Origin: a virus
Lineage: Duplodnaviria; Caudoviricetes
Strand: one strand, 5' to 3'
Length of the DNA: 64,000 nt
IMG/VR virus record: IMGVR_UViG_3300028888_000093
Location: 1 to 64,000 of that record
In this document: positions 32,447 to 64,000 of the stretch, piece by piece
How the letters are laid out: each line of letters begins with the position of its first letter
How positions within the stretch are numbered: position 1 is the first letter of the stretch
Translations under genes and position numbers: made by a program
Notes under the pieces: generated by a model
Databases searched by the model: none
Told to the model about the DNA's origin: nothing
The model's input: the letters and a program-made list of their open reading frames with translations, nothing else

Positions 32447-32620
32447 TTATTTCCCCAAAATAACCAGGTTAGGTCGTATTTCGTTTGGGTTCGGTTTATA
32501 TTTTGGAATTCCACCACTCAATTCGTCAATTACACTTATGTTTGGGAGAGTGTATCCAGACGAATTAACATATTCGGTATAAGCTGAAAGGCTTTTAAAT
32601 CTTTTGAAGTAGTCAATCAT
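32447..32620 (-). CDS. 57-aa protein missed by the ORF track; N-terminus paralogous to the downstream glycine-rich protein
   Basis: Hand translation MIDYFKRFKSLSAYTEYVNSSGYTLPNISVIDELSGGIPKYKPNPNEIRPNLVILGK*; late motif 22 nt upstream. Confidence 0.7.
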   Translation of the reverse strand: MIDYFKRFKSLSAYTEYVNSSGYTLPNISVIDELSGGIPKYKPNPNEIRPNLVILGK

Positions 32621-32642
32621 AATTCAATCTTTTTATTATTAC

Positions 32643-32650
32643 ATAAATAG
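32643..32650 (-). promoter_or_regulatory. Putative late promoter CTATTTAT (minus strand)
   Basis: ATAAATAG on the + strand; heads the only minus-strand cassette. Confidence 0.65.
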
Positions 32651-32713
32651 TGTGTTTGTCATTGATTATTTTACAAAAACGAGGTAAATTGATATAGAAT
32701 AATTTCTTGTAAA

Positions 32714-32721
32714 CTATTTAT
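32714..32721 (+). promoter_or_regulatory. Putative late promoter CTATTTAT
   Basis: Heads the baseplate operon. Confidence 0.7.
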
Positions 32722-32739
32722 GTTAAATTGGTTTTAAGT

Positions 32740-33129
32740 ATGGCATTAACGCAGAAATACGGAATAAAATACCCATTCACATCAGACAACAACGACAATG
32801 TTTTCATGGATGTGAACGGAACTTATGCTGACAGCATAAAATCAAAGGTCATGCATGTTATTCTGACACAAAAGGGACAGAGGTTAAGGAACCCAGAGTT
32901 TGGCACAAGTCTGATAAATTACATATTTGCCGCATCGGACGACATAACGTTGTCTGCGGTGAAGCAGGAGGTTGGGTCTCAATTGTCAAAATATGTGCCA
33001 AATGTGGCTTTTAATGACCTTGATGTTTATCGTGACGAAAATGACGAAAACAATGTGATTGTGTCTGTCACATATTCAGTAACAAATGGAAATAACACCG
33101 AAACAACAACTGTTGCGGTGAGATTATAA
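32740..33129 (+). CDS. Baseplate wedge subunit, gp25-like
   Basis: GIKYPF, ILTQKGQRLRNPEFGTSL, YVPNV; ATG at 32740. Confidence 0.9.
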   Translation: MALTQKYGIKYPFTSDNNDNVFMDVNGTYADSIKSKVMHVILTQKGQRLRNPEFGTSLINYIFAASDDITLSAVKQEVGSQLSKYVPNVAFNDLDVYRDENDENNVIVSVTYSVTNGNNTETTTVAVRL

Positions 33130-33141
33130 TCAAAATTACAG

Positions 33142-35064
33142 ATGGAAAAAGGGATAACATATTTGAATCGCACATTTTACGACTACAAGGATGCCTTGTT
33201 GGAATACTCAAAGAAATATTATCCAGACTTGAACTTGGAATATGACGATGCATCTGTCGCTTCGTGGTTGATTGATTTGAACGCCGCCATTGCCGACAAT
33301 TTGTCATATCACATTGACAGGGTGTATCAGGAGACAAATTTGGACAGTGCACAAGAGAGAAAATCTTTGTTGAATATCGCAAGAAACAATGGGGTTAAAA
33401 TACCAGGACCAAAAGCGGCAATGGCTGAGGTAAGGCTTTGGTGTGTGCTTGGGGTTGACCAGGTCAGTCATCCAGACTGGTCTTATGCTCCAATAATAAA
33501 GAGGGGGACAAAGGTTGGTTCGGCAAACGGACAGGAATTCGAGGTATTGGAAGATGTTGACTTCGCGCAACAATTCAACCAGGATGGAATAAGTGACAGA
33601 ACATTCACACCGAATCTGAATGCCAACGGTGTGATAACAGGGTATACAGTATCGAAACTTGCGGTTGTTGTTGCTGGTGAGTCATTAATTTACAGGCAGA
33701 ACATAGCCAAAACAGATATAAGACCTTTTATGGAAGTTGTTCTTCCGATAGAAAATGTCATGAATATTGAATCAATACTTGTCGTTCCAGGAAACAGCAA
33801 GGAAATACCGACATATGGCGCATTTTACAGTGAGGTGGAGGAATGCGAGAATGGTGTGAGATTTTTCGAAGTTGACAGTTTGTCGCAAACAGAGAGATGG
33901 GCGCCAGAACTTGACGTACACACAAACACAGCAAAAAAATACTATTATGGCTATGATTATTCTGGCGGCACGGTTGCGTCTTATTGCATCACAAAAGGTG
34001 AGTGGAAACCAGTGAAACACAAATTCATAACCGAATACATGGATAACGGGTACATGAAAATAATATTCGGTGCTGGAAACAATTACGAGTACCCAGAATT
34101 GGGTGATTCAATGTCTGATTTTGCCAAGTGGCAGATATCAAGAATGATAAGCAATGATTCTTTGGGATTATTACCAAATCATGACAGTACAATGTTTATA
34201 TTATACAGACTTGGTGGTGGTAGAGCAAGCAATTTGGCAAGGGGAGCAATAAACAGGATTTCATATTTGAACGCCGAATTCAGGGGAAGCGACCAATCTG
34301 TAATTTCAGAAGTAAACAGGAGTCTTGGCGTTATAAGCACAACACCATCAGTATCTGGAAAGGACTTTCCGTCAAATACCGAGTTGAAGTATATTGTAAA
34401 ATACAACAAGGGGGCACAGGAGAGATGTGTTTGTGTCAAGGATTATATAGACAGGTTGTTGCAGCTTCCGCCGAAATACGGAACGCCGTTCAGACTTGGT
34501 GTGGTTGAACAGAACAACAAGATTGTTGTTTATGTTCTAGGTTTGAACTATCTTGGCCAACTTGACACACTTTTACCGATAACATTGATAAAGAACATAG
34601 AACGTTATTTGTCTAAGTATAAAATGTTAAACGATTATGTTGAGATAAAGAGCGGAAGAATCATAAATCTGGAATTCCAGGTTGATGTAATTGTTGATAA
34701 AAATTACAACAAATCAGATGTTGTTTCGTCTATCATCAACACAATCAAGGATTACATGGATATCAACAAACACCTTATGGGTGAGGAAATTTACGTTGGA
34801 GATATTGAGAAAGAGGTGTCGAAGATAGATGGTGTGTTAAACCTTATTGATTTGGCTGTTTACAATAAGATGGATATGGGTTATTCAAATGTTCAGGTAT
34901 CTCAACCAATCATGCTGGATGACAGTAGGGTACAGCCTTATGCGTCTAATAAAGTCAGGATTGACCTTGAGGAAAGTGATTGGATACTATATAATGAGGG
35001 TGACACCATGATGGAAATTAAAAATCCAAGCGAAGATATTTTGGTAAGGGTAAAGGAAAGATAA
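33142..35064 (+). CDS. Baseplate wedge protein, T4 gp6 / baseplate J-like
   Basis: DNLSYHIDR..QETNLDSAQER.S, IIFGAG, YRLGGGRASN, QERCVCVKDY. Confidence 0.88.
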   Translation: MEKGITYLNRTFYDYKDALLEYSKKYYPDLNLEYDDASVASWLIDLNAAIADNLSYHIDRVYQETNLDSAQERKSLLNIARNNGVKIPGPKAAMAEVRLWCVLGVDQVSHPDWSYAPIIKRGTKVGSANGQEFEVLEDVDFAQQFNQDGISDRTFTPNLNANGVITGYTVSKLAVVVAGESLIYRQNIAKTDIRPFMEVVLPIENVMNIESILVVPGNSKEIPTYGAFYSEVEECENGVRFFEVDSLSQTERWAPELDVHTNTAKKYYYGYDYSGGTVASYCITKGEWKPVKHKFITEYMDNGYMKIIFGAGNNYEYPELGDSMSDFAKWQISRMISNDSLGLLPNHDSTMFILYRLGGGRASNLARGAINRISYLNAEFRGSDQSVISEVNRSLGVISTTPSVSGKDFPSNTELKYIVKYNKGAQERCVCVKDYIDRLLQLPPKYGTPFRLGVVEQNNKIVVYVLGLNYLGQLDTLLPITLIKNIERYLSKYKMLNDYVEIKSGRIINLEFQVDVIVDKNYNKSDVVSSIINTIKDYMDINKHLMGEEIYVGDIEKEVSKIDGVLNLIDLAVYNKMDMGYSNVQVSQPIMLDDSRVQPYASNKVRIDLEESDWILYNEGDTMMEIKNPSEDILVRVKER

Positions 35065-35327
35065 TGGCTTGTGCATGTAAAGTTACGAGACAGTTGGATT
35101 TCCTGCACAAGAAATACGGTGACAACCAACCGAAAAGCAAGAAAACCAACATAATAGGAAGTATAAAGGGCAAAATCATGGCTGTGTGTACTTCTGTTTT
35201 GATAGTGCCTTTTTTCCCCTTTTATATTGTCAGGGCAATGATAACAAACAGACACGGAATATTCAACATAGATAAAATTTTCAATTTAACAAAAAGCAAG
35301 AATGTTAGAAAACAACAAATCATATAG
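35064..35327 (+). CDS. Small putative membrane protein
   Basis: TAATG coupling to the wedge gene; MACACK start; hydrophobic IMAVCTSVLIVPFFPFYIVRAMI. Confidence 0.65.
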   Translation: MACACKVTRQLDFLHKKYGDNQPKSKKTNIIGSIKGKIMAVCTSVLIVPFFPFYIVRAMITNRHGIFNIDKIFNLTKSKNVRKQQII

Positions 35328-38300
35328 AATCAGAACGGATATAAACAACGACAATTATGTTACGGTCAACCTGTCACAGGATTATGATTCTTTTGACATA
35401 CTGTCATTGAAGATAAACAGCCTTGATGCATACAAACACCACAATTCAAAGTATGGTGTTGTTGTCGGAAGGGTTTTGGCTAACGGTGGTTTTGGTGTTC
35501 CAAACGCCAAGATAAGTGTTTTTGTTGAATCAGAAAATCCGAACATGAACGAACTTGACGAGATATACCCGTTTACGTCGACAGTTTCAAGAGATAATGA
35601 CAACATAAGATACAATTTGCTTCCTGACAATAAGGTTTCTGATTGCCATCAGGTTGTAGGTACGTTTCCAAACAAAAGATTCATGTTGGACAACAACATA
35701 TTGGTTGAAATGTATGACAAATATTACAAGTATACAACAAGGACAAATGAGGCTGGAGACTATATGCTCGCGTGTATACCAGTCGGGCAGCAGGTATTGC
35801 ATATGGATTTGGACCTTTCCGATTGTGGTATATTGTCTCAGAGGCCGAGGGATTTCATATACAAAGGATATAATGTTGAGCAGTTTGAGAATCCTAATCA
35901 ATTCAGAAGCGGAACTGAGTTTGAAACATTAAGTCAGATTTTTTCACAGGACCAAGTTGTTTATGTGCAACCATTTTGGGGAAATGAATCCGAGGGTGAC
36001 ACAATAGGTATTACAAGGGCTGACATAAACATCAGTTATAAGTTCGAGCCGACATGCGTTTTCATCGGATGTGTTGTAAGCGACAACTCATCACAGGGAA
36101 TATCAAAAAACTGTGTCCCGACAGAACACATGGGAGATATGGATGAGCTTGTTGCTGGAAAGGGACGGATTGAGATGATTCGGAAGACTTATGGGGGTTC
36201 TGTTGAAGAATTCCAAATAAACGGTACGGAGTTGATAAACGGTGAGGGAATATGGTGCTATCAGATACCGATGAATCTTGATTATATGGTTACGGATGAA
36301 TACGGCAGAATGGTTCCGACAGACAACCCAAGCAAAGGAATACCGACCAGGACCAGAGTGCGCTTCAGAATGTCAATGGAAGATATGGAGGAAAACGTTG
36401 ACAACTTCTTCAGAGCAAAGGTTTTGGTCCCGCACAACCCGCAAAACTTAGGCGGAACAAAACATGAAGATTATGATTATGAATTCGGTACACACACAAA
36501 GGATGAATCATTCAGGGATTTGTTCTGGAATAATGTATATACGGTTAAATCATATATCCCAAGATTTCAAAAGAGAAAAGTGACTGGTTGGAAGGCTCCT
36601 AAATTCACAGGAATAAAACATTGTCAGAATTACGGTTCAAACAATCCGATACCATATAACAATATAAGGATTAAACTTCCGTTCATGTTCAGGATAATGT
36701 GTATCTTGATTAAGGTGTTTATCAAACTTGTGGCCATTTACAACAGGGTTGTTGCTTTGATTGGCAATGTGCTTGTTGGGTTGGCGGAAGCTTTTTCCAA
36801 ACTTGCTTTATATAAACCAGCTGGAAAAGTCATGGAGGTTGCACAAAAACTCCATTTGAACATCATCGAGGATGGTTTGTGTCCAGACCTTGAAAATTGG
36901 TATTTCGCGCCATTGGTCACGAAAAACGGAATCAAATACAAGGGTTTCGCTAGGGTTAAAACAGAAGAAAACAGCACTCCGCACAAAGAGTATTATGACC
37001 TTGTGAGCCAAACGATGGATGTAATAGAAAATGCTGGTGATTATGATGATGAGACATCAATCGACACACAAAATACAGACCCAGATGACAATGATGACGC
37101 TATATGTATAACATTCAAAACAGATTATTTGATTTCATGTGTTGAAATGAATCTTGCTCAAGAGTATAAAGTGATTAATTTTGACTTCTATAATGATTGG
37201 GTTAACGGGATGATTTATTTTCCTAGATGGATGCGATATATAAGGCTTAAGAGACGTTTTCGTGGGAATACAATCATAAAAAGCAAGACAAAGGCTTGCA
37301 TGGACAATACAAAAATCTTTTCAAAAGCAAGAAGATACACACAATTATGTTCTTTGGCCTATGAAAAGGACACATCAAGCAATAAAGTGACATATTCGAA
37401 GGTAACAACCAAACTCAACAATAAAACCGACATAAGAAAATCAAACAACTATCACAAAAAACGCGGATTTTCCCAAGTGAAGATTTTTGGTAAAAATGGA
37501 GGAATATGTCATGAAAAGGAAACAATGGCTGGACAGCATGTGTATTATTTGAAGCCGTGTGAATGGCTCAGAAACACAACACCAGCGAACAAAAAGGTGA
37601 ATCTGTTCGCCACGGACCTTGTTTTATTAGGCTCACTTAACGAATGTGATATGTACGGCGTCCCTCAAGCATTCAGATATTTGTCAAGCACCTCATATAT
37701 AATGCCGACAAACCTTGCATTGACCAATATGGAAACTGATGGTGTTTTGTATTCATATGGAGACAACAAGACAATATGTTCAAAAACAAACCAGTCAAGC
37801 CTCAATGGGGATGACCCGAATCTGGACAAACCAGTCGGTCTTGCAGATAACACACTTGTTGGCGAATTGAATTATTTCAGTGGTGCTGGTGAAAATTATG
37901 ACACACAATATGAGGATGATGAATCAGACACAATACCGATGACAGAAGCGGCTGGCATTTCATGGAATTACACTGGACCAGGCCAGAACGAGATAAACGA
38001 ATATCAAATGTATTATCCAGGAGGTCATTTTTTAGGTCTTTCATGTTCTAATTCCCAAACAAACATAAAATCATGCATAAACCTTGAACGTATATGTGAG
38101 CAAGGTGTTGTTATGTCACAGAGGAAGGTTGATGTTCGCGCCGTATCTACAGGTGGAACAAGTGAGCTAAAATACGTTTACACGGCTCCGTCTGGATTTA
38201 TAGCCAAAGATGAGATTGTTGACGATTACTTCCGTTCAATGTTTGCGACTATGAACAAGAACAGGTTGATTGCGACAAAGATGAATCGTGAAACTGGATA

Positions 38301-41163
38301 TTTTACTTATGATTTTGATTACGTTAACCCTATGAACTTTAGTGGTGAATTTTCAAATTTCGCACGTCCACAAACGGCTTACAACAGTGGTGTTTCAATA
38401 GTTGATGAAAGTTCGGTTCTTAGTTCATACGGAATTGCAAGTGGAACTAGCAGACCAGATTTTGACGCCGATGAATCAACCCATACACAAGTAAGGACAA
38501 TTGAAGACAAGAGTGTTGATTACTATATGTTCAGGCTTGGTTTGGATTACGAAGACCTTAAATCAAACAACCAAAAGCACAAGAGGCAGTTTGCTGCGGA
38601 AAACAAGAATAAAATGTATTTGCCACAATATGAAAACAGTTATTATTTCTATTTCGGTTTGCACGCTGGCTCAACTGCAATTGATGAATTCAACAAGCAA
38701 TTTTTCTCACAATGTGAAAACAGTGTGTTAATTGAAAGAGAGCCTAATATAAATCTTGTTATAGGTGATTTCAAACTTTGTTCTGGGACATCAACAGTGA
38801 GTATAGTTGTTGAAAACATGGAGGAACCGTTTGAATTTATTGTGTATGATGACAACGGAAACGTTTTTGAAAGTGAAAACGGGGACAACATAAACGCTGT
38901 TTTTGAATTGCCAAGCGGTGAATATCAAATTCTTGTAAGAGACACAAACGGTGTTGAAATGATACGAAATATTGTTATTGGCGACCAGATATTGCAAGGA
39001 AGTTTTGTGCTGATGGATTTTAATAACAACATAACAAACGATTTTGGTGGCTCAATACAGAGAACACAGACCAATAAGAATATTTTTTATGGTGGAGGTA
39101 TTGCTTGTAATAATGTCTTCATAGATGATTCTATTGAAACCTACACGCTTTTGGCTGTAAAAGACGGATTAAACCCGATAACCGATTTTGAAGTTAGTGA
39201 GGTGTTGACCGCAACAGGTGAATCTGAAGAAACTCAAATTATATATTTGTCATCAGCAAACACTGAATATGATTTTTATGTTAAATACCAAGTTGAAGGG
39301 TGTAGTGAACAATATTTGTTCGTTGTTGAAGGCAAACTTATGGATACATCGGTTGTGAACCTTCAGTATGGTGCTGTTGAAAAATCAAATGTTGTGACAG
39401 ATACAATGTATACGAAAGATTGGTGGGTTGGAAGGTATACAGAGCCAGTTGACATTACAATCATGGAATCAAAGCAAAGATGGAATGCGCGAAAGGCTAT
39501 GGAGAACACAACATGTAACAGTGCTACAACCGATTCATGCGGTGTATCAACAAACGGCGACAAGTTTGTGTTTGGTTCACCTCAAAATTTTGATAGTGTA
39601 TTATATAATAATAAATATTATGTTGACGGATACAACACACCAGCTGGTATGAGTGTTGATGATGACTACTCGTATTATCCAACATATGGAATACCTCAAT
39701 ACAATAATGTGAAACAGTTTAATTGTGTGTCTTACATGGGTAGTGTCGTTTTTGGTTCGTTTGCTGCAATAGTAAGTGGACAGTCTGGTGAAACGAAACA
39801 ATTGGTTTTGCAACCGCAGATATCAAACAGATTAAGACATGGAGACGGTTGTGTTTTAAAATCTCTTCCAGATGGTGTCCTTTATCCAGCAATTGCATTT
39901 AATCAAAACAACAATTGGACAATACAATATATTGACGCAACACAATCACAAAACATCGGGTGGAATGATGTGGAATATGGAATAGTGTATCCTACAATAT
40001 GTTATCCATCGTTAAACAAGGTTTTCAGAACAGATGTTTGTTACACCATAATCAACAGGATTATGTTTAACAACACAAAAGAGAGTTATGAACCGTTCAA
40101 TTATTTAACAAAGTGCGACGGTAGTATATTCAATGGTGTAACATATAACAGGAAGTATAGCGGAAAATCACACATAGATTTGTATGAAAACACAAACGAC
40201 TTGGAGGATTCAACAGACATAACGATTCCAGCTTTGTCTGATTTTGCTGGTGTTTATTCGGCGACATCAATACCGTTGGTTACATATGTTTCTGGATTCA
40301 CAGCATATGCTTATGATGAAAACATGGAATTAAATGAGGTTGGTACAAATTACAGTTATTCTATAACAGAGGGTTATCCGTTGTATAAACACACAGCAAA
40401 CCAAGAAACAGCATACTCGGCAATCAAGACAGACAATTACAGCACACAATACGAAAAATCATATTTGTATGAAGGTGTTGTTGACACTCTCGGATTGGAC
40501 ATGAATGCCAGTTTCTATGATAACATATGTTATAACAGTGGGTCCACTATTACATTTGGTGGTTTGGGTGTTTCCGATTCAGATGTAAAATATTATTGTT
40601 TGTCAAAGGACCAGACAAACCTTTTTAATGAGTATTCAACTGTTTTATTCTATAAAAGCGACAATTCACGAAGACCAGACACTATAGTGGTTCCTGTTAT
40701 TTACAATGTTGCTGGAACGGAATTCAATGCTGGTGACATCGGTGTAATAACCTTCAAAAAGGCAACTGGACATTATTCGGCTGAATATTTTAACTCCGAC
40801 GGGAATTTGGAGCCAATTGATAACATACCAGGAGACGCTGACAAAGGAAGAATTGACTATATGGACATTGTAAACATGGCAACTTGGGTCATCGAAAACA
40901 CAAACCCATCAAACCTGTTTAAAGCGGCTAAAATGTACAGACTTTTTACAAATTCAAATGTTGATTACCGCACAAACATACTTGATTTGTGCAATTCAGG
41001 AAACAGGATTGTTAACGGACATGTCACAAACTTGCCAAGCGGTGAGTTTTTCATTGTCGGAATAAAGAGTTTTTCGAATGATGACGGGCGTGCAACTGGC
41101 AGAATCGGTATTGTTTATGTGACACCAGTTGATGTTAATAATATTGATAATGTGTTAAATTAA
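35302..41163 (+). CDS. Large baseplate/tail structural protein (1953 aa)
   Basis: In the baseplate operon. N-terminal GVVVGRV..GFGVPNAKISVF..TTRTNEAGDY (transthyretin-like fold); beta-rich C-terminus. Confidence 0.7.
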   Translation: MLENNKSYRIRTDINNDNYVTVNLSQDYDSFDILSLKINSLDAYKHHNSKYGVVVGRVLANGGFGVPNAKISVFVESENPNMNELDEIYPFTSTVSRDNDNIRYNLLPDNKVSDCHQVVGTFPNKRFMLDNNILVEMYDKYYKYTTRTNEAGDYMLACIPVGQQVLHMDLDLSDCGILSQRPRDFIYKGYNVEQFENPNQFRSGTEFETLSQIFSQDQVVYVQPFWGNESEGDTIGITRADINISYKFEPTCVFIGCVVSDNSSQGISKNCVPTEHMGDMDELVAGKGRIEMIRKTYGGSVEEFQINGTELINGEGIWCYQIPMNLDYMVTDEYGRMVPTDNPSKGIPTRTRVRFRMSMEDMEENVDNFFRAKVLVPHNPQNLGGTKHEDYDYEFGTHTKDESFRDLFWNNVYTVKSYIPRFQKRKVTGWKAPKFTGIKHCQNYGSNNPIPYNNIRIKLPFMFRIMCILIKVFIKLVAIYNRVVALIGNVLVGLAEAFSKLALYKPAGKVMEVAQKLHLNIIEDGLCPDLENWYFAPLVTKNGIKYKGFARVKTEENSTPHKEYYDLVSQTMDVIENAGDYDDETSIDTQNTDPDDNDDAICITFKTDYLISCVEMNLAQEYKVINFDFYNDWVNGMIYFPRWMRYIRLKRRFRGNTIIKSKTKACMDNTKIFSKARRYTQLCSLAYEKDTSSNKVTYSKVTTKLNNKTDIRKSNNYHKKRGFSQVKIFGKNGGICHEKETMAGQHVYYLKPCEWLRNTTPANKKVNLFATDLVLLGSLNECDMYGVPQAFRYLSSTSYIMPTNLALTNMETDGVLYSYGDNKTICSKTNQSSLNGDDPNLDKPVGLADNTLVGELNYFSGAGENYDTQYEDDESDTIPMTEAAGISWNYTGPGQNEINEYQMYYPGGHFLGLSCSNSQTNIKSCINLERICEQGVVMSQRKVDVRAVSTGGTSELKYVYTAPSGFIAKDEIVDDYFRSMFATMNKNRLIATKMNRETGYFTYDFDYVNPMNFSGEFSNFARPQTAYNSGVSIVDESSVLSSYGIASGTSRPDFDADESTHTQVRTIEDKSVDYYMFRLGLDYEDLKSNNQKHKRQFAAENKNKMYLPQYENSYYFYFGLHAGSTAIDEFNKQFFSQCENSVLIEREPNINLVIGDFKLCSGTSTVSIVVENMEEPFEFIVYDDNGNVFESENGDNINAVFELPSGEYQILVRDTNGVEMIRNIVIGDQILQGSFVLMDFNNNITNDFGGSIQRTQTNKNIFYGGGIACNNVFIDDSIETYTLLAVKDGLNPITDFEVSEVLTATGESEETQIIYLSSANTEYDFYVKYQVEGCSEQYLFVVEGKLMDTSVVNLQYGAVEKSNVVTDTMYTKDWWVGRYTEPVDITIMESKQRWNARKAMENTTCNSATTDSCGVSTNGDKFVFGSPQNFDSVLYNNKYYVDGYNTPAGMSVDDDYSYYPTYGIPQYNNVKQFNCVSYMGSVVFGSFAAIVSGQSGETKQLVLQPQISNRLRHGDGCVLKSLPDGVLYPAIAFNQNNNWTIQYIDATQSQNIGWNDVEYGIVYPTICYPSLNKVFRTDVCYTIINRIMFNNTKESYEPFNYLTKCDGSIFNGVTYNRKYSGKSHIDLYENTNDLEDSTDITIPALSDFAGVYSATSIPLVTYVSGFTAYAYDENMELNEVGTNYSYSITEGYPLYKHTANQETAYSAIKTDNYSTQYEKSYLYEGVVDTLGLDMNASFYDNICYNSGSTITFGGLGVSDSDVKYYCLSKDQTNLFNEYSTVLFYKSDNSRRPDTIVVPVIYNVAGTEFNAGDIGVITFKKATGHYSAEYFNSDGNLEPIDNIPGDADKGRIDYMDIVNMATWVIENTNPSNLFKAAKMYRLFTNSNVDYRTNILDLCNSGNRIVNGHVTNLPSGEFFIVGIKSFSNDDGRATGRIGIVYVTPVDVNNIDNVLN

Positions 41164-41177: not shown

Positions 41178-43970
41178 ATGGAAATTCAAATACCATTAAA
41201 TTCATTCAAGGGCAAGGCTTCGGTCAATGTTGAAAATTCATTTTCTTTCGACTTGCGAAACAAGGAGCGACAGTTAAAGCCTGACAACATGATATCGGAT
41301 TTTTCGTTGCTTGAGCAATATAATATTGAAAGGGACGCATGTGACAAATTCAGATACATATTGACACTCAATCCGATATGCACAAACGTGCTTTTTAACA
41401 CGCAAACCGAGGTGGTTCAATTCGAGGGTTCGAATAGTGCGATGGTTTTGACGAATACAGACTCAATACATAAGGAGGATATAAAGCGTGCCGACACATT
41501 TGAATATGACAATGCAATACAAAACACGAGCATAATAGACAGATACCAGGCTATAAACGACACCGAATATTCTCACGACGCAAACGGAGGTTTTGAATAT
41601 CATTGCGGAGTCGACATATTCAATAATCACATGTTAAGGAAAAACGGTTTCATACATATAAACAAAATGCATGGTACTGATTCGCTTTCATCTCCTGTAT
41701 ACAACACAATAGCGGACTATTTGAGAGATGGTGAGGGAAACATTGTTTATTCAAAAATTTCTCCAGTATACAACAGGAACCAAAACACAAGATTGCACTT
41801 GTATACACTTGATAATTGCAAGTCACTTAAAGATGCTTATCTTCAAAACATAGAGGAGGATAACGGGTGGGTTGGTTTTAAAAACGTGACAAACATAGAC
41901 GTTGAAAACAATTCTGGTGACACGGTTATGATTAACAGTATTTTTGCAAACAAGAAACCGTGCGAGTTTGTTGATTTATATCCAGACAGGACATTGTTCT
42001 CGTTCATTCCAAAATACAACAAATACAGGAAAAGAGCAGAAAACAATTGGGAATATTGTATAACATATCCGTATGCGATTGATTATGATATGTTTAACAT
42101 TGTGTTTGGTGGTGAAAACCAAACATTAAAAGCTATAGCGGAAAGCGGGATGAATATATCAGCGACAAATGTATTGTTCTGTCGTTCAATGGTCAGACAC
42201 AATCTGTCGAAGGGTGACAGGGTTTCCGTTTATTATTATAATTCAGATGGCGAAACCAGTGTGTTCGAAAAATACAAGACATCAGTAGAGGTTTTCGGTA
42301 TTGGTGATGTTGATGGAAGCGAGTCGGATTTTGTGTTTTCAGTCAAATGTTCAGATGTTGATTCAATACTGGACTATCTTTTAAATGGCGGTTTTTTCTT
42401 CAAAAAACTTGTGAACGGTATAGAATGTGATTATTATTTCAGAAAATACAAAAAAATCAAGAAGTTTGATGAAAATGGTGAAAGAACCAGGGAACTTGAC
42501 AGCGATTTGAATAAATGTGGCTTTTCAGAGAACATTTATGGTGACGGAATAGCCCAAATCATATTTACAGATGACATAGATTTGAATGGTTTGGTTGACC
42601 ATCGCGGTAGAAAAGTGACTGAGACATATTTCACTGTAATAAAAAACAACAAGGGAAACAATTTGTGGTATAAAAACCATTTTTTCGGTTCTGAAAATGT
42701 TGAATACTCACATTGTTTCGGGCCAATTACATCTGGTTTGTATTTCGGCGACAACGCAAATGCCGAATTTGATTACAATATAAGATATTTGCATAATGTT
42801 GAAATTGACACGGAAATAGCTGACAGACCAGTTGATGATGACTCTATTAGACCATACCAGGGCGACATTGTTTATGGTAAGGGAGATTTGACGCTTGGAG
42901 ACGGGGTGGTTTTGGATTTCATCCCATACAGTGCGTTAGGAGAAACAATATTGCGTGGCGTGCCGAAAAAAATAGAGGACAACATCACAATAGACAACGA
43001 TGAATTCTATGGCGATGTTGTTGAATTTGATTATTACAATTATGCGGAAACACAATTAAGCCCAGTACTACATCGTTTCAACACAGTTCAGCGGGAATGG
43101 ATTGCAAACAAAAACTATGCGTCATTGAGATATGACAAATTGATATATGATGATTTTGACCTGAAAGAAAACGGTGATTCAAGACAATTTACCATTCAGG
43201 CAAGCGATATGTCCGTTGTTAAGTACAACAACAAAAATTACAGGTTGTATTCGAATGTAAGACCAGAGGGGTATTTTTACAATCCACACACGTTGATTAG
43301 TGTGGGGGAGGAATCCGAAATGACAACAAGGGTTAAGGGAAAAAGAATAAACTTCTCCAGCTCCAGTGGTTATTATGATATGGATACGGATAAGACAACA
43401 GTTTCATTTGTTGCACCGATAAACTACGGTTTTTATAAGCACACAAACATAGCATTGTATGATGCTGGAGGCAGATACAACGGGAAATTGCAGCATGTCA
43501 GAACAATTTGGGGTGAAGTTGTTGATATTAAAGACAATAAACTTACGATTGTCTTTGATGGAGATGTCTTTAACGTCATGACACAAATAACAGACATTAA
43601 TGAAGTCCTGAACCCGAATGGCGAATACAAGGAACGGTATACTTTTTATTGGTCTAAAGACGGTGTTCCGACATATGCTAATTTTGTCCCTCAAATATCT
43701 TCGTTTGTGTGGAAGTCGGTTGTTCCGCCATCCAAGATGTCGAATGACATGGAACTTTTCGACACACCTTTTGCAAACGGAAGATTCTATATTGAAAAGG
43801 ATATAAGGTTTTATAACAGGAGACAGGATGCGGACGGAAGATTTGGTTTGTTGTTCGCAAAAAATCCGATTTTAACCCCACCGACAGACTTTTTCAGCAT
43901 AGAGGGTGACACATTCAATACGGACCAAGCGTTTGATTTTTACAATAACATAAACAATGTTTGCTATTAA
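41178..43970 (+). CDS. Putative baseplate/tail structural protein (930 aa)
   Basis: Operon context; no specific family recognised. Confidence 0.6.
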   Translation: MEIQIPLNSFKGKASVNVENSFSFDLRNKERQLKPDNMISDFSLLEQYNIERDACDKFRYILTLNPICTNVLFNTQTEVVQFEGSNSAMVLTNTDSIHKEDIKRADTFEYDNAIQNTSIIDRYQAINDTEYSHDANGGFEYHCGVDIFNNHMLRKNGFIHINKMHGTDSLSSPVYNTIADYLRDGEGNIVYSKISPVYNRNQNTRLHLYTLDNCKSLKDAYLQNIEEDNGWVGFKNVTNIDVENNSGDTVMINSIFANKKPCEFVDLYPDRTLFSFIPKYNKYRKRAENNWEYCITYPYAIDYDMFNIVFGGENQTLKAIAESGMNISATNVLFCRSMVRHNLSKGDRVSVYYYNSDGETSVFEKYKTSVEVFGIGDVDGSESDFVFSVKCSDVDSILDYLLNGGFFFKKLVNGIECDYYFRKYKKIKKFDENGERTRELDSDLNKCGFSENIYGDGIAQIIFTDDIDLNGLVDHRGRKVTETYFTVIKNNKGNNLWYKNHFFGSENVEYSHCFGPITSGLYFGDNANAEFDYNIRYLHNVEIDTEIADRPVDDDSIRPYQGDIVYGKGDLTLGDGVVLDFIPYSALGETILRGVPKKIEDNITIDNDEFYGDVVEFDYYNYAETQLSPVLHRFNTVQREWIANKNYASLRYDKLIYDDFDLKENGDSRQFTIQASDMSVVKYNNKNYRLYSNVRPEGYFYNPHTLISVGEESEMTTRVKGKRINFSSSSGYYDMDTDKTTVSFVAPINYGFYKHTNIALYDAGGRYNGKLQHVRTIWGEVVDIKDNKLTIVFDGDVFNVMTQITDINEVLNPNGEYKERYTFYWSKDGVPTYANFVPQISSFVWKSVVPPSKMSNDMELFDTPFANGRFYIEKDIRFYNRRQDADGRFGLLFAKNPILTPPTDFFSIEGDTFNTDQAFDFYNNINNVCY

Positions 43971-52664: not shown

Positions 52665-53489
52665 ATGTCTAAAATTTTCAGTTGGAAGGTTGGTTCTGGC
52701 AAATACGCATATCTTATACCATCCGAAGAAACTAACAAATACATAAGGAACAGGATTACAGACACCGACAAACTGTTGGACATGTCGCACATAATCGACC
52801 AATACACGGAATCTGAATATGAAAATGCATTCAATTCACTTAAAGAAGAGGTGGAAGCGGCTTATGGATACAATCTTGGTGATTATTCACAATATTACAA
52901 TGTTTCCAACGATGATTTGTCAAGGCTTGTATTGCTAACAGGTAAAGATGCTGATAACACTCTGGTTTCAAGACTCACACAGACAGATTACAATAATATT
53001 CAAACTATGATAAATCAAGCTATTGAACAGTTGAGACAGGAGGTGATGCTTAATAATACAACAATAGTGACCAATGTTCAGTCGGTTGCAAGCGCATGTG
53101 TCAGTAATGCAATTGAAGAACTTGATGATACCACAAACAGACTTGAAAGTCTTAATGAAAGACTTGAAATTACAAATGCCGAAGCGGTAAGAAATATTGA
53201 CGATATGAGAAACATTTTGTCAACAGATGACGGGGATATAACTCTGCAAATGATGGTTAATTCATATAAAACAGTTACGGAATCACAAGCGTGGATGAAC
53301 TCAAACAGGGATATATTACAGACAATGACAATAGATTACGGAGTGGCATATGAAGAACTTGGAGGTGAGTCGAATTCCGTCTTTAAAACAATGGCTAACA
53401 ATATCAACAGAAGCAATTCGGCGATAACCGACATTGAAAAAGAAATATCAAAAAGTGCAATTCCTTTTGGTGATGGTGATGAAGTTTAA
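52665..53489 (+). CDS. Coiled-coil protein, putative structural
   Basis: 274 aa, heptad-rich; last gene before a terminator. Confidence 0.6.
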   Translation: MSKIFSWKVGSGKYAYLIPSEETNKYIRNRITDTDKLLDMSHIIDQYTESEYENAFNSLKEEVEAAYGYNLGDYSQYYNVSNDDLSRLVLLTGKDADNTLVSRLTQTDYNNIQTMINQAIEQLRQEVMLNNTTIVTNVQSVASACVSNAIEELDDTTNRLESLNERLEITNAEAVRNIDDMRNILSTDDGDITLQMMVNSYKTVTESQAWMNSNRDILQTMTIDYGVAYEELGGESNSVFKTMANNINRSNSAITDIEKEISKSAIPFGDGDEV

Positions 53490-53541: not shown

Positions 53542-53545
53542 CTAC

Positions 53546-53583: not shown

Positions 53584-54567
53584 ATGGCTAGACAAGTAAT
53601 AAATAAGCATGTATCAAACGCTTCGGACATTCATTACTTGAATTTTGAATATTTGGGTGAGATTGTTATTTGCAATGAGGCGGGTAATGAAGGTATTTAT
53701 GTCATTAATACAAATCACGAGCCTGTTAAGATAGGTTCTTGGAGTGGAGACATTGATGTTGATACAGATAGGATTATTCAAGATTTAAAAGGTTGGGTTA
53801 CAGCTAATTTTGCATCAGCAAGTGATATAACCAATCTTCAGGAACAAATAGACAATATCAGCATTGATATTGACGAGGAAAAGGTGAAGGAGATTGTGAA
53901 TGGTGAAATCGAGAAATTGGTTGATTCGGCTTCGACTGATTTCAATACACTTGGAAAGATAGAGAGATGGATAAAAGAACATCCTTCCGATGTTGACCCG
54001 CAATTGGTTGCGGATGTTGAAAGCCTTAAGGCAATTTCAGCAGATACAAGGATTAGTGAATTGGAATCCATTTCAGCTGGAACAAGACTTGATACAATCG
54101 AAGACAAAATAGATGGCATTGTAAAGAACAACGACCATTTCGTAATGACATACCAAGAATACCTGACATTGATTACAAGCGGAAGTGTTGTTGTGAACGA
54201 CCAATATATATCTTATAGTGATGACCATTTTTATTGTATATACGAGAGTGATAGCCCAGAACCAACGCCAGAGCCAGAAAGTGGAGGAACCATAATAAGT
54301 GGAGACACGGTTATATTTGGCGATGGATATCCATATGACGACGGTTCATCAACGGGAGAAGCACCATCGTTGTATATTGGAACGATTGAAGACGAGGGTG
54401 ATGGTGTGATTGTTGTTGATTGGCTTGCTGGCAGCGATAGTGACACACCAGACCATGATATAGATGATGATACAATAATCATTAATGACACATATGATGA
54501 GGACTCTGCATCAATAAATTTGGGAACGGTTGAAATTGATGAACAAAACGGAATAATCACATTATAG
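53584..54567 (+). CDS. Putative tail fibre-associated protein
   Basis: Fibre-anchor-like GEIVI..IY; LVDSASTDFNTLGKIERWI fibre segment; PEPTPEP linker; acidic tail. Confidence 0.6.
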   Translation: MARQVINKHVSNASDIHYLNFEYLGEIVICNEAGNEGIYVINTNHEPVKIGSWSGDIDVDTDRIIQDLKGWVTANFASASDITNLQEQIDNISIDIDEEKVKEIVNGEIEKLVDSASTDFNTLGKIERWIKEHPSDVDPQLVADVESLKAISADTRISELESISAGTRLDTIEDKIDGIVKNNDHFVMTYQEYLTLITSGSVVVNDQYISYSDDHFYCIYESDSPEPTPEPESGGTIISGDTVIFGDGYPYDDGSSTGEAPSLYIGTIEDEGDGVIVVDWLAGSDSDTPDHDIDDDTIIINDTYDEDSASINLGTVEIDEQNGIITL

Positions 54568-54591: not shown

Positions 54592-56724
54592 ATGGCATAC
54601 GTAAAACAATTTAAAGCTAAGAAAAGCACTGGTGAAGAAGTGCTTCTTGATATTTATGCAGCATCAGCTGATTTGGCAACCTATGCAATTGAGGCTGAAA
54701 CCGCACTTGGTGTAAATGGAATATATGTGAATACAAGCAATAATTTTGAAATAAATGCAGCAGCCGCTGGTGGTGAAAAACTAAACCTTGTTGCTGGAGA
54801 TGCAATACAGGTCAAACCTGGCGATGGTGAGCCTTTGCAACTCGATTGTGAACAAAACAGTGTTGACATTAATGAATATGGAATTAAGGTTTGCAATGGT
54901 GCAATGCCAAAGAATACACGTGTTGTCGGTTTGAAATTGAATGCCGCTGAGCTTACCGTTGACACACAAAAGGCAAACACTAGTGAATTTGATATTGATG
55001 AATTCAATGTTAAAGTGCGCAATGATAAATGGAATGGCGGAGAACAAGTTGGCTCAACAGGTCCTATTTACCTTAAAGTGAAAGCGCGTGCCATTGATAT
55101 GAGATGCCATGACCATGGTGGTATTGCTTTACAAATAGCTGGAGCTGACAGCAATGGAAAAGAAAATAAAATAAAGTTCGAAAGTGACAGAACTTCAGAA
55201 ATTGGTGCAATACCAGCGTATAACAAAGAAGGAGGAAAGGGTCTTGAATTTGGTACCTTCAACAACGAACACGCTTCATTATTCTGTGGGGATTATCGTT
55301 TCAAAGGAGATGCAAATGTATACGGCGTAACACGTAACACTCCAACGACCGACCTCAAAGGTAAGACCGACTATCCAACTCAAAGTGATGATTTTAAAGA
55401 TGTTATCAATGCTTCAACTCCGAAAGCCACTTGGAATGAAATTATAGACGCAGCTAAAAAATGCGGTAACCTTGATGAAACAATTCGCGCAGAGGTTGCA
55501 AGACAGGCTTTAAACGGTGAAATAGACACAAGTGTATTTGTAACAAAATCAGAGGTTGAAGATGTTGTTGCTTCAGCAATCAGCGAGGCGCATATCGACA
55601 CAACTGGGTTGGCAACAGAACAATGGGTTCTTGACAAACGTTATATTGACGCTTTGCCTGATACAATCCAATATTTGAAGATGGGTAAGAGCAAAGGTAA
55701 TTTTGCTGTTGATGTAACTGGAAAATACACATGGGAATTGACAAGTCCTAAATCAGCAACAACTGTTGATGAATATGGTGTGCCACACGCAAAAGGCGAC
55801 AGAATTATCAACTATTCAAATGAAGCATTTTACTCTGACCCGAATAAAGTTTATTATAAAGCAGTAATAGAGACAACTCTTGCCGACAACACTACTGTTG
55901 TTCCGATAGACACAATCGTTTATACTTCAGGATGTAATTTGACTTTCAATGTTCCAGAGGGTGCATATCAATATTATTTAATCGGTAACGGTGAAGCATC
56001 GTTTTATGAAGACCCAACAAAATATGTTTACCAGGGTACTAAAAACATTTCAATAGCATATGGAGAAACAACACCAATAAAGAAAAAGGCTATTAAAAAT
56101 CCGAACGATTTAACACAAGAAGAATTAGAGTATTACGATAGTCAAACACCAGAATACGATGAAGAAGGTTCTTTGATTGCTGGTTGGGAAAAAACTCCAA
56201 TATGGAAAAAATCGACATTGTGGTCACAAAACGAAATCAACATTAATCTTGAAACAGATAGTAAAATAAAATTTGCTGGAAAGAAAATTGAAACTGTTTG
56301 GACTTATGAAGAAAATGGTGAGGATGTTGACCACAAAATGGATGATATTTTACTTTCAACAAACACTTTGTCTACTGATGCAAATGAAGTCGTTTTTGAA
56401 CAAAAGATTTCTAAAAACGGTGATAGAGAAGGTCAAGACAGTGAAATAGTGTATTCGTTCGGTAATAATGTTGCAGACGTTGAAAAGGTTCCAGACTTGT
56501 CTGCATTTATGGCTAATTATCGTTCAAAACATTCTGGTACCTATACAGATGAAGAACTTACAGCAAAATATAATGCATTTTTAGCTGAAGGCCAATCCTT
56601 TGAAATCAGAGTCAAAATCAGCGAGCTTCTTGGTCTTGTTGAAAGAGTTGCACAACTTGAAGCAAAGGTGGCACAGCTTGAAAACACTTCAACAGAACCA
56701 GAACAGACGAATCCTGGTGAATAA
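54592..56724 (+). CDS. Putative tail fibre/spike protein
   Basis: Beta-rich N-terminus, LATEQWV segment, C-terminal coiled coil LVERVAQLEAKVAQLE. Confidence 0.55.
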   Translation: MAYVKQFKAKKSTGEEVLLDIYAASADLATYAIEAETALGVNGIYVNTSNNFEINAAAAGGEKLNLVAGDAIQVKPGDGEPLQLDCEQNSVDINEYGIKVCNGAMPKNTRVVGLKLNAAELTVDTQKANTSEFDIDEFNVKVRNDKWNGGEQVGSTGPIYLKVKARAIDMRCHDHGGIALQIAGADSNGKENKIKFESDRTSEIGAIPAYNKEGGKGLEFGTFNNEHASLFCGDYRFKGDANVYGVTRNTPTTDLKGKTDYPTQSDDFKDVINASTPKATWNEIIDAAKKCGNLDETIRAEVARQALNGEIDTSVFVTKSEVEDVVASAISEAHIDTTGLATEQWVLDKRYIDALPDTIQYLKMGKSKGNFAVDVTGKYTWELTSPKSATTVDEYGVPHAKGDRIINYSNEAFYSDPNKVYYKAVIETTLADNTTVVPIDTIVYTSGCNLTFNVPEGAYQYYLIGNGEASFYEDPTKYVYQGTKNISIAYGETTPIKKKAIKNPNDLTQEELEYYDSQTPEYDEEGSLIAGWEKTPIWKKSTLWSQNEININLETDSKIKFAGKKIETVWTYEENGEDVDHKMDDILLSTNTLSTDANEVVFEQKISKNGDREGQDSEIVYSFGNNVADVEKVPDLSAFMANYRSKHSGTYTDEELTAKYNAFLAEGQSFEIRVKISELLGLVERVAQLEAKVAQLENTSTEPEQTNPGE

Positions 56725-56744
56725 AAATTTGCACTTATTATATA

Positions 56745-56933: not shown

Positions 56934-56955
56934 AATATTTTTTAACAAATAAAAT

Positions 56956-62900: not shown

Positions 62901-64000
62901 TGTTACAGAAGTTCCAGAATCTTGTTTCTTGGGATGCAAAAAACTTGGAAAACTTATTTTGGGTGAAAACATAACAGCAATAAGGAATTTTGCTTTTGGT
63001 GATACAAACTTCACATATGCATTGTTGCGCGATGCTGAACTTGGTGATGGTGTGTTGATATTGCCTGATTCATTAACAATCATAGAAAAGAACGCTTTTG
63101 AACAAACAGAGTGGAGCAGGACATCAACAACAAACAAACTTAAAGTACTTTCATTCCCTCCACAATTAAACGTTTCAAGAGACCTACAGTTGCTATATGG
63201 TAAAAACTATGAGGAATTCATTCTGTCAAGCGCACAGACCATCTATATGACTATAGACGGCGTCCTGTTTGATGGAAGAATGGCTACATTGATAAAATAC
63301 CCAGCAAACAAGGCGTATGTTGATTTGTATGAAGTAAATAACGTCACAACTCTTAACGATTATGCTTTCTTTGGTGTTCAGAATATGGGAACACTTGTTT
63401 CTCCAACAACACTTGGTGCAAGAGGTATGGGCGTTCATGTGTTTGAGGATTCGAAGATAAACACAATAGACCTGAGAAATTCTGTCAACCTTACAGAACT
63501 TCCAACATATACATTCTACAATTGTAACGAAACGGAACACATCTATCTACCTAACGAGGGTTCAATCAAGACGTTTGGAACACATACGTTTGACGGTTGT
63601 ACATCATTGCTTGAGATTGAAATTCCTTATGGCGTGGAAACATTTGACAACGGTGGACAAGCTGGTGGAAACTACTATGCAAGTAATGTGTTTGTTGGTT
63701 GTAACAGTTTGGCTGAGATAAACTTACCAGAAACATTGACAAGTGCTGGTTATAACGTTGTTAAGGATTGTGCAAATGTTGAAACGGTTAAGTTTCCGAC
63801 ATATATCAAGTATTCAAGCATGAATCCAAGTTCTTCAAATATTACGGACCAACGAAACACATTGTTTAATTGTCCTAAGCTTAAGACTGTTTTTATACCT
63901 GTGTTCTCATACACAAACGAAGATGATGAAAATGTCATTGTCAACCAGAACTTCCCGCAATTCTATACAAACTGTCCTAATATCGAGGAATTTGTTTTGC
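56956..64000 (+). CDS. Giant (>2,348 aa, 3'-truncated) protein: Ig-like/LamG-like, CotH-kinase-like and BspA-type LRR domains
   Basis: ATG 56956; absent from the ORF track, consistent with no stop in the window. Starts MANTYNEKINRTTDWGGD. LamG-like VVNGV..IRVYNKAIT. CotH-like QGTSSLGYPRKNF, LKADFMESS, DGFP, GQYNF, DQFVKN, YDND. LRR-like IVLPTTVRTLGNGTFNGCQEL and FDGCTSLLEIEIP. Confidence 0.85.
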   Translation, partial: MANTYNEKINRTTDWGGDFSTSGLPVTGYRVQEFIKSELWGKIGSIYKPEGGNKVYCFSNDDDKQEFIETGNELLALSSFETVSNFSVRINTETLVRSYSVINGTTGNTISFQFMISDKDGMISDSRASIEYSFLSQGIVQKYTNEVQMNGDGWTTVTSEVLDRYLRNGENTITIAITGLSTKTTSQFIVTYNLFDLSYETMFEYNVVQTGNTIAVPYMVECTDTKYLVFYIDGVEVNPYESTVIADYRKDSTANLNISDLEPGLHTLQTYAYVRANDGTIFKSNIYYYTFAVDGNVAPSFLMSLVLPNTQLIALNGAALTVYTKQFEQIHFDWSMYDYRERKLVVNFEFAGDVITKTVVDKNGEINTFMFRPMDYGYAKPLIVYALDDEDNRLFEYTVYFDVEETDMGIRETTDGLLLKLQSQGRRNTDLNRDNWSCIGNDGNEYKATFNNFTWSEQCGWDSNTESLVISNGATVGFNIQPMINEWERNGGTIEIDLETFDIEDDNAVICECFNSIPEKPSAYFRVTSTKAEFSTKDGISINTRYKDNERLKIAFIGNKVGNHEDGNLIYIVVNGVLERAALYEDTDKLYSDAFLQIGNPDGLCKVRLRSIRVYNKAITVDEAFNNYVVDSDDVQTIYEKNNVLKPGTNEIGFDEVANKLPVMIFTGDMGELAKNGQDKKWRYFDVEYINRQEPARNFVSFNCRMKLQGTSSLGYPRKNFKLSTKDKNFNKDIYAASIYELDPNSQISNLMLRNKRTGKQLDVGDLNGNCFTFDYEGKPLKKGKYRFKEGSHKADKWTLKADFMESSCSHNVAAGRSWNDIFENTLFELTLDAGYTNNTYKDSALVDSREYIEYNRADGAHCKINNNTEEIKAQKKYVCRTDAQKICHAENADDIRTAVDGFPMVCFYRTSHKTNNLVFMGQYNFINDKGSYEVFGFEDIEKPDDEDTFIYDASKVECWEGLKNANPISLFKTIDNWEDPEVGWASTYESRYPDPDDYGVDGKKWYDASVGSPLYELSKWLVSTRHESDTIYNGTLNIDASFAKRINDYQYGYTVDTQDSFEYAEGVNLEDNAENRQKKFETEKWEHFDVWKLAGYYIYLMRYGAVDQFVKNTMLFTDGNGKYDNRSDNKYRKWFFLNYDNDCLFGLRNNGEIAFDWKLDRQTLDGANDIIEDDNNNEEGDVNTYAMMGHDSTLWNNLERDDEFMRMVRDLDNAMSTFGLNYNNMVKEFDTNQTEQWCERIYNANERYKYIQAAKGIGDMSGNPVNNLWMLQGTRRSHRHWWIANHFNLLDAKWLSGDYKNTYVQLKTDCFAGDTIRASAGTDYYFAWGQQKKIYESNMVREEGEAIDFVFDTNQVQGDPVYIYAINKMSTLDFSGIAYKVAAGSFEFHVGDTNVANLLKKLIIGNPNVVNRMTGIATSTWASLTNLEYLDITNYNGIKTVPLSSFKNIHTLKANGSSLGSFVPANGCNFDLIELPNTIATIEMNDIGINNLVTDFKYTPNTTLDSFTLSNNAGVGMTYYNNIIKPWINSIEASANAGALYRECKIDVSDINWSFSKLSDLLIFRNFRDYAKPNNFNLRGYIDITACGNLSMDNINEIIHIFGDNCFSETMGSLYIKTPNSVFIDLPKNEIVAGETITISRTIYPSESAIADLNPDIQYYIVRETELTPEEDERVIEDVLTGKKYLPVEDLSTVRQGITLTNTVDENGKQIAVLSTDEIVTNRDTDLLLLVNMKIIGQFNDCVSVAQFKIKDPTYATTSNIIGETSLYKNKEYTFELKLFTNSNVPPIGSYNVSWELSGSGISNYIDEYYPSGDHDLRFTIKTNQNQPETSEPLFIKTFVTNHNSTNVSTSIKVLILNENVIMTSESNPVVMAKCYQQGWTNGSPDAMRKDQAEAITSIGGVFSGITEKFSFYEFQYFINVVDISENAFKNSKLTTIVLPTTVRTLGNGTFNGCQELTDVLLNCGEKGNGETVYRNELPSAVTEVPESCFLGCKKLGKLILGENITAIRNFAFGDTNFTYALLRDAELGDGVLILPDSLTIIEKNAFEQTEWSRTSTTNKLKVLSFPPQLNVSRDLQLLYGKNYEEFILSSAQTIYMTIDGVLFDGRMATLIKYPANKAYVDLYEVNNVTTLNDYAFFGVQNMGTLVSPTTLGARGMGVHVFEDSKINTIDLRNSVNLTELPTYTFYNCNETEHIYLPNEGSIKTFGTHTFDGCTSLLEIEIPYGVETFDNGGQAGGNYYASNVFVGCNSLAEINLPETLTSAGYNVVKDCANVETVKFPTYIKYSSMNPSSSNITDQRNTLFNCPKLKTVFIPVFSYTNEDDENVIVNQNFPQFYTNCPNIEEFVL

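Follow-up and report, generated by a model that had tools for sequence, protein, structure and literature searches.

A clade-specific S-[G/A]-x-T motif under selection in virion proteins of T4-like phages, a candidate sequon for O-glycosylation of the particle

Glycosylation of phage virions is known from mycobacteriophages, according to the statement for which PMC12582341 gives its ref. 80. Here we describe a four-residue motif, S-[G/A]-x-T, in the tail, baseplate and fibre proteins encoded by IMG/VR virus record IMGVR_UViG_3300028888_000093 and by its relatives. The analysed stretch, called the window below, is the first 64 kb (64,000 nucleotides) of this 91,344-bp record, which corresponds to about 25% of the genome by CheckV completeness. 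Work by Freeman et al. from 2023 in Cell Host Microbe (31:1216) is said to have described O-glycosylation of the virions of mycobacteriophages Che8, Corndog and Myrna by phage-encoded glycosyltransferases (GTs), and the glycans were reportedly shown chemically, on C-terminal stretches of the capsid and tail-tube subunits. We know of no four-residue sequon in the mycobacteriophage system, which to our knowledge is so far the only demonstrated case of virion glycosylation by phage enzymes, and one without a predictive sequence rule. The first-pass annotation of the window, which knew of no described phage glycosylation sequon, is outdated because virion glycosylation has been described in mycobacteriophages, and it still stands in that we know of no short sequon from them. 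A literature search found no paper on such a phage sequon or on this clade.

The present locus resembles the mycobacteriophage system in its phage-encoded cytoplasmic GTs, in having virion structural proteins as (here candidate) acceptors and in the proposed shielding. In contrast to the mycobacteriophages, the candidate targets are fibres, baseplate and outer sheath, the S-[GA]-x-T signal is dispersed, and the GTs belong to different families (DUF4422/GT111-like, GT92, GT2 and GT11). In chlorovirus PBCV-1, the capsid is glycosylated at non-canonical sequons by soluble multidomain GTs (A064R, A111/114R). Virus-encoded, membrane-independent multidomain GTs together with a methyltransferase are common to PBCV-1 and this locus, and in PBCV-1, as is proposed here, a virion protein receives its glycan step by step at a sequon unlike the cellular one. 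However, PBCV-1 infects a eukaryote and its glycan is attached to Asn (N-linked), and no sequence relationship was found between the enzymes of the two. The general O-glycosylation sequon of Bacteroidota, D-(S/T)-(A/I/L/V/M/T), works in the periplasm with a lipid-linked glycan and has Asp at position -1. It is similar to S-[G/A]-x-T in that a hydroxyl residue is followed by a small residue, and the host phylum is possibly the same. The two are nevertheless distinct, as the first-pass annotation had held: here Asp is not preferred at -1 (320 contexts), position +3 must be Thr, and the enzymes appear to be soluble. Modification through the Bacteroidota sequon was rejected because of the missing Asp at -1. 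The GT cluster also has no transmembrane-like (TM-like) segment of the kind that a lipid-linked pathway (flippase, membrane transferase) would need.

Virion proteins of this clade carry S-[G/A]-x-T as a short linear motif that is specific to the clade and under selection. In the open reading frames (ORFs) starting at or after position 32447, 29 sites are present in 10,406 aa, compared with 5.4 expected from each protein's own composition, and 32 sites in 11,763 aa when the 1357-aa ORF at the start of the record is added. In contrast, the ORFs at 4079-32341, which comprise the replication genes and the GT block, contain 3 sites in 8,978 aa versus 3.3 expected. The contrast between structural and other proteins in the first-pass annotation is therefore unchanged, although its amino-acid denominators were slightly off. 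All the sites that it listed are present at their places; for the 1357-aa ORF it gave two and missed a third, SAQT at base 57. When the proteins were shuffled with their composition preserved, as whole proteins or in windows of 40, 20 or 10 aa, none of 2000 shuffles reached 29 sites (maximum 17), and correcting for S/G/A/T content, locally too, leaves the enrichment in place. Since the motif was chosen after seeing the data, it was ranked against all motifs of the same shape. S[AG]xT was the first of 76,000 a-[bc]-x-d motifs (Poisson p 1.1e-12, next independent motif about 5e-6), and p was still about 1e-7 after correction for the 76,000 motifs. SAxT (15 versus 2.2) and SGxT (14 versus 3.2) were the top two of 8000 single motifs. 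Over the tail, baseplate and fibre proteins of the phage and its relatives, the motif occurs at three to six times chance.

The signal needs all three residues at the exact spacing. In three clade genomes, the patterns S[^GA]xT, [^S][GA]xT and S[GA]x[^T] and the reversed order all gave ratios of about 1.0 (0.94-1.1), and other residue spacings gave 1.0-1.6. These ratios, together with the 10-40 aa shuffles, rule out composition or local S/G/T-rich loops. The flanks from -10 to +13 showed no residue preference, and 320 of the 344 contexts were unique. Two variants that had been called frequent were separated by their counts in the window's genome, where S[GA]xS is enriched 2.2 fold and T[GA]xT only 1.3 fold. 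The carrier proteins are mutually unrelated, as previously claimed, with no blastp matches among them, and no Pfam or PHROG family is common to them. With neither similarity between carriers nor a signal in the flanks, the motif is therefore not the signature of a shared domain; paralogy and internal repeats were rejected on the lack of blastp matches and the unique contexts.

The codons at the sites differ, with Ser encoded from both of its codon boxes. Codons are chosen there about as for the same residues elsewhere in the same genes, with no difference in clade genome G005 and modest shifts of Ser codons in G000 and G001. The underlying DNA pattern is found almost only in frame 0 (50 versus 5 versus 2). 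These observations indicate that selection acts on the peptide, in agreement with what had been proposed for the window, and they rule out a signal at the DNA level.

The excess was also observed in the relatives. Downstream of gp25 in 27 related loci, 216 sites were found versus 55.7 expected, and the genome-wide ratios of six clade genomes were 3.4 (G000), 1.9 (G006), 3.0 (G015), 3.2 (G005), 3.5 (G014) and 2.5 (G001). Unbiased rankings of 8000 motifs placed SGxT first and SAxT second in G014 and SGxT first in G001, and in G005 SAxT and SGxT were behind zinc-ribbon motifs only. The motif is tuned by lineage, as G001 favours SGxT and G005 takes Thr at the first position ([ST][GA]xT). Seven outgroup phages (T4, KVP40, phiKZ, crAss001, Flavobacterium phage immuto, Microcystis phage Mel-JY01 and 200 kb of LR756508) showed ratios of 1.1-1.6, and none of their long fibre, baseplate and sheath ORFs was significantly enriched; the T4 fibre proteins gp34 and gp37 have 1 site versus 1.65 expected and 3 sites versus 1.69 expected, respectively. 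The enrichment is thus absent outside the clade and is no general property of fibres, and a generic fibre or baseplate property is ruled out.

Other motifs stood out in some of these genomes. CPxC and CPxH are 20-25 times over-represented in G005 and G015 (L083-L102, L219-L237), which points to many small predicted zinc-ribbon ORFs. In Mel-JY01 (L163-L172), GTxG was counted 151 times versus 22.6 and SGxS 122 versus 36.6, in immuto (L123-L130) TGxT 58 versus 27, and in G006 (L183-L201) TGxT 361 versus 50, together with GAxG and GPxG (collagen-like repeats); the counts in these three genomes pool low-complexity repeats with any true motifs.

Conservation was compared between the window and two relatives, whose orthologues are about 55-65% identical. 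Of 33 motif sites, 19 have persisted in these relatives, often with G exchanged for A or the reverse and with x changing freely. Both Ser and Thr are retained at 20 of 32 motif sites (62%), but at 13 of 50 S-[other]-x-T sites (26%) in the same proteins (Fisher p 0.0013), while flank identity is alike for the two classes (0.54 and 0.57, respectively). The 794-aa ORF keeps three of its four sites in each close relative, with G/A swaps, and the single site of the gp6-like protein, SGGT, reads SGDT in one of the close relatives, whereas the other has lost it (EGNT). In 35 orthologues of the 1953-aa protein, 174 motif instances are spread over 118 alignment columns; the five sites of the window align to non-motif residues in most of these orthologues, which bear sites elsewhere. 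Homologues of the 818-aa protein likewise keep some sites and shift others. The motif is under purifying selection, and its positions turn over while its density is kept.

The motif lies on variable, probably exposed parts of virion proteins. All five sites of the 1953-aa ORF are within the variable C-terminal third. In 31 distinct orthologues this third holds 117 sites versus 19.6 expected (6.0 fold), compared with 37 versus 22.1 (1.7 fold) in the conserved N-terminal part. The sheath protein of the complete relative G005 has five sites, all of them in a middle region without alignment to T4 gp18, whereas the conserved core at its N- and C-terminal ends has no site; in gp18, the middle region is the outer part of the sheath subunit. 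The G005 capsid protein has two sites in a segment not aligning to gp23, and the capsid insertion region is probably a motif-bearing part as well.

Site placement on AlphaFold2 (AF2) models was judged by secondary structure. The C-terminal part of the 1953-aa ORF (aa 1280-1953, 674 residues) was modelled from 26 sequences with a predicted local distance difference test score (pLDDT) of 79, and Foldseek gave no real match for this model (TM-score about 0.1). Thr is the first strand residue in two of its motifs (model residues 42 and 219), the rest of which lies in a loop; among the other three, one spans a hairpin turn, one is in a loop before a bridge, and one is inside a strand. The 818-aa protein gave a weaker model (pLDDT 62), in which site 303 is just before helix 307-315, site 526 opens strand 525-548, and three sites fall in low-confidence stretches. 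In all, six of the seven confidently modelled sites are in loops or at the starts of elements, and one is inside a strand.

A 12-kb block of sugar enzymes is located between the replication genes and the baseplate genes (Table 1). Pfam gives soluble GT domains only, no TM-like segment was found in any protein of the cluster, and these proteins are predicted to be soluble. The cluster itself (16659..28625) contains 1 motif site (SGVT, 28041) versus about 0.7 expected. The DUF4422 domain of the 1081-aa GT matches its nearest solved relative, WbbM (PDB 6U4B; E 1e-16, residues 804-889), the Klebsiella DUF4422 galactan builder, with which it shares this domain. WbbM extends a lipid-linked polysaccharide, and protein-directed activity is undescribed for its family. 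A large GT92/DUF4422 protein is encoded directly upstream of gp25-gp6 in many relatives. A DUF4422 GT is present in all seven clade genomes of at least 90% completeness and in the window's record, and in none of the seven outgroups above the Pfam cut-off.

A nine-base box, ACTATTTAT, has 7 copies in the window versus 1.0 expected and is a candidate late promoter of the clade. A shorter form, CTATTTAT, stands before three fibre-like ORFs (53584, 65175 and 78813), the first of which is the 327-aa ORF. The T4 late promoter TATAAATA was tried and is not enriched. ACTATTTAT stands before the baseplate block as well as before the leading ORF of the GT cluster, which would fit joint late expression. 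The same box as for the structural genes precedes a 786-aa ORF (8904-11264) between the uvsX-like and phoH genes, which has a weak GP88 Pfam match and could encode another virion-linked enzyme.

S-[G/A]-x-T is a candidate sequon for cytoplasmic O-glycosylation of the virion by phage enzymes, a reading that we consider quite possible, though short of probable. The covalent modification, a sugar as this modification and the responsible enzyme are all three what we infer. In the proposed mechanism, a soluble phage enzyme would recognise the motif in the cytoplasm late in infection and modify its Ser or Thr, the best candidate being the clade-conserved DUF4422 (GT111/WbbM-like) GT. Extension of the sugar would then fall to the variable companion GTs together with the epimerase and the methyltransferase, and the extended sugars would coat the particle on fibres, distal baseplate proteins, outer sheath domains and probably the capsid insertion region. 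More tentatively, S-[G/A]-x-T (broadly [S/T]-[G/A]-x-[T/S], tuned by lineage) may be the first defined phage virion O-glycosylation sequon, read by a soluble GT111-like DUF4422 enzyme of rumen and gut T4-like jumbo phages and serving a dense glycan coat of shifting positions on fibres, baseplate and sheath. The sequon is preferred to other explanations because it accounts for the three-residue specificity, the free flanks, the helical and beta contexts, the kept density, the lineage tuning and the conserved soluble GTs. A glycan acceptor had already been suggested for the window, and this suggestion agrees with the selection on the peptide, the unrelated carriers, the clade restriction and the soluble GTs, but its link to an enzyme comes down to a single contrast.

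Several observations weigh against a glycosylation sequon. Every near-complete relative has a DUF4422 GT; no clade member without it was found, and its co-occurrence with the motif is therefore one phylogenetic contrast (8 records versus 7 outgroups). A search for an unrelated phage clade bearing DUF4422 gave only short unannotated faecal fragments and one locus on a 134-kb contig, which was unplaced. Although genome G014 shows the strongest enrichment, it encodes no more than one 249-aa protein homologous to the GTs of the window. This weakens the link to the adjacent GT cluster that had been proposed earlier, as cluster size is irrelevant; a GT that reads the motif would be the DUF4422 enzyme conserved in the clade, not the large cluster taken together. 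Characterised DUF4422 enzymes (WbbM) extend polysaccharides, and we know of none that starts on protein. The GTs could act instead on DNA or host glycans. Two S/T/G-rich ORFs adjoining the GT cluster have no site (651 aa, 0 versus 0.80 expected; 300 aa, 0 versus 0.46), and the sites are not clustered in a mucin-like way, with no clustering at gaps of 12 residues or less. The equivalence of G and A indicates a small-residue requirement only, which fits a sequon or a structural motif. Thr is commonly the opening residue of a strand or helix or stands directly before it, and this also fits a structural turn or cap motif.

Such a structural micro-motif without modification is the main rival, which we regard as somewhat unlikely. 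Ser, through a side-chain hydrogen bond (ST-turn or N-cap type), would build a turn or cap together with the small residue and Thr, leading into a strand or helix, and this element would be used unusually often in the fast-evolving surface domains and segmented coiled-coil fibres of this clade. The known ST-turn or helix N-cap 'capping box', S/T-x-x-E/T, has no G/A requirement at i+1; it shares with S-[G/A]-x-T the Ser at i, the hydroxyl at i+3 and, in the models, a frequent position at helix or strand starts. Consistently, Thr or the motif is found at, or immediately ahead of, the starts of strands, bridges or helices (model residues 42, 219, 131 and 470; residues 306 and 526 of the 818-aa protein), the motif precedes heptad-like helical stretches in fibre-like ORFs, and purifying selection is equally expected for a structural role. 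However, a generic motif should be enriched in all proteomes, whereas the seven outgroups, which are rich in beta fibres and coiled coils, stay at their low ratios. The 320 contexts carry no flank or hydrophobic periodicity signal, the motif is found in helical and beta contexts alike, and positional turnover at kept density is unusual for fold-determining residues. The lineage-specific choice of the hydroxyl and small residues (SGxT only in G001, [ST][GA]xT in G005) is more like the work of a co-evolving reader.

The reader may also be something other than a phage GT, such as a Ser/Thr kinase, an acyl- or methyl-transferase, a radical-SAM enzyme (for example the 786-aa GP88-like ORF), a host enzyme or a non-covalent reader, for instance an assembly chaperone. 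The statistics say only that something reads a four-residue pattern, and the 786-aa ORF bears the ACTATTTAT box of the structural genes. This explanation is nevertheless unlikely, as no kinase domain was found in the ORFs scanned, and the DUF4422 GT is clade-universal while no such enzyme class has been shown to be. The CotH-like kinase that had been offered as an alternative reader was not supported: PF08757 is unmatched in this genome and four related ones (G000, G001, G005, G006 and G015), whereas four control genomes match, and CotH is also unmatched in any ORF scanned with Pfam.

Another kind of surface selection without a phage-encoded reader, through contacts with host polysaccharide or through avoidance or mimicry of a host feature, appears quite improbable. 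It would agree with the concentration of the motif in hypervariable distal domains and with the turnover of its positions, but the strict three-residue spacing and free flanks are hard to obtain from diffuse surface chemistry, and the reversed motif and other spacings are unenriched. Chance, composition or an annotation artefact, although the motif was selected with the data already in view, can be dismissed in view of the corrected p, the local shuffles, the replication out of sample, the frame specificity and the unique contexts.

The window is T4-like phage DNA and encodes gp32, a UvsX-like RecA, a DnaB-like helicase, PhoH, thymidine kinase and gp25-like and gp6-like wedge proteins; past the window, the contig continues with a prohead protease, SbcCD, primase, a sigma factor and a collagen-like fibre. 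The relatives, found via the gp6-like protein, are contigs of 200-400 kb that encode T4-type capsid, portal, sheath, tube and terminase. The nearest cultured phages have only about 25% identity in gp6, and a megablast search of the structural block against cultured phages gave no match. The ORFs after gp6 mostly have no Pfam or PHROG family, and a locus search with the 818-aa protein alone as query returned no locus. The C-terminal part of the giant ORF has BspA-type LRR_5 repeats, and the host phylum is possibly Bacteroidota, judged only by these leucine-rich repeats and low GC content. The 1357-aa ORF, labelled a hub protein by the first-pass annotation, has no Pfam or PHROG match to confirm this label. 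Beyond the window, the excess continues in the 595-aa ORF (Table 1), and next to the collagen-like fibre there are two small ORFs with 2 sites each; no site is present in the minus-strand ORFs at 67-78 kb (including sigma factor and SbcC) or in the primase, SbcD, protease and thymidylate-synthase ORFs near the contig end.

Some neighbouring genes have features of their own. TM-like hydrophobic segments, unusual in a baseplate or fibre protein, were seen once in an 87-aa ORF (35064-35327) and twice in the 1953-aa ORF (aa 455 and 474). The 651-aa ORF (29444-31399) has a weak Listeria-Bacteroides repeat match and the 300-aa ORF (31439-32341, minus strand) a glycine-rich domain, and relatives lack both ORFs between the GT cluster and the baseplate genes. 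The 57-aa ORF is similar to the N-terminus of the adjoining 300-aa Gly-rich ORF (36% identity over 42 aa) and may be its duplicated or split 5' end. In the closest relative, resolvase and IS605 OrfB/TnpB genes (L158:13055-14862) directly follow the orthologue of a 986-aa ORF, and from there on the order is unlike that of the window, with replication genes and not fibre ORFs.

Table 1. Positions of the sugar-enzyme genes, the nine-base box and the ORFs of the structural region, with their S-[G/A]-x-T sites (observed versus expected where given)
Feature	Position	Strand	Basis or remark	S-[G/A]-x-T sites
GT2	16659-17894	+	Pfam	
GT2	17898-19298	+	Pfam	
DUF4422	19307-20110	+	Pfam	
GT2_4/GT92	20107-20982	+	Pfam	
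GT11	20989-21786	+	Pfam	
NAD epimerase/dehydratase	21938-22939	+	Pfam	
FkbM methyltransferase	23860-25368	+	Pfam	
1081-aa protein, GT92 x2 + DUF4422	25380-28625	+	Pfam	
ACTATTTAT copies	4726, 8875, 15930, 28711, 32713, 46037	+	6 of the 7 copies (both strands) 15-40 nt before ORF starts	
ACTATTTAT copy	32643	-	see row above	
ACTATTTAT candidate late-promoter box	15930..15938	+	before 185-aa ORF heading GT cluster	
1357-aa ORF	3..4076	+	open at contig start	3 (57 SAQT, 645 SAGT, 1284 SGNT) vs 0.96
57-aa ORF	32447..32620	-		2 (SAYT 32587, SGYT 32560)
gp25-like baseplate wedge	32728..33129	+	PHROG 261/43; begins baseplate/fibre block after ACTATTTAT box	0
gp6-like baseplate wedge	33142..35064	+	PHROG 6/219	1 (SGGT 33961)
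1953-aa ORF	35302..41163	+		5 (39253, 39520, 39784, 40291, 40537)
930-aa ORF	41178..43970	+		1 (41913)
794-aa ORF	43961..46345	+		4 (44306, 44558, 44627, 45584) vs 0.28
818-aa ORF	46348..48804	+		5 (46432, 46567, 47254, 47518, 47923) vs 0.42
274-aa ORF	52665..53489	+		1 (53418)
327-aa fibre-like ORF	53584..54567	+		5 (53926, 54037, 54073, 54280, 54298) vs 0.23
710-aa ORF	54592..56724	+		1 (55753)
Giant ORF, 2720 aa	56956..64000	+	stops at contig 65118	4 (60913, 62668, 62896, 63229) vs 1.8
595-aa ORF beyond window	contig 65175-66962			9 vs 1.6

If S-[G/A]-x-T is purely structural, a clade-specific, selected four-residue element in unrelated virion proteins would still be unusual and would help to annotate exposed domains. 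If it is a sequon, glycosylated phage proteins and their sites would be predictable from sequence alone, and the motif would point to protein-directed activity in GTs whose family is so far known from polysaccharide synthesis only. A sequon would also mean that large gut and rumen phages keep a shifting 'glycan shield', which would bear on host recognition, immune recognition and phage engineering.

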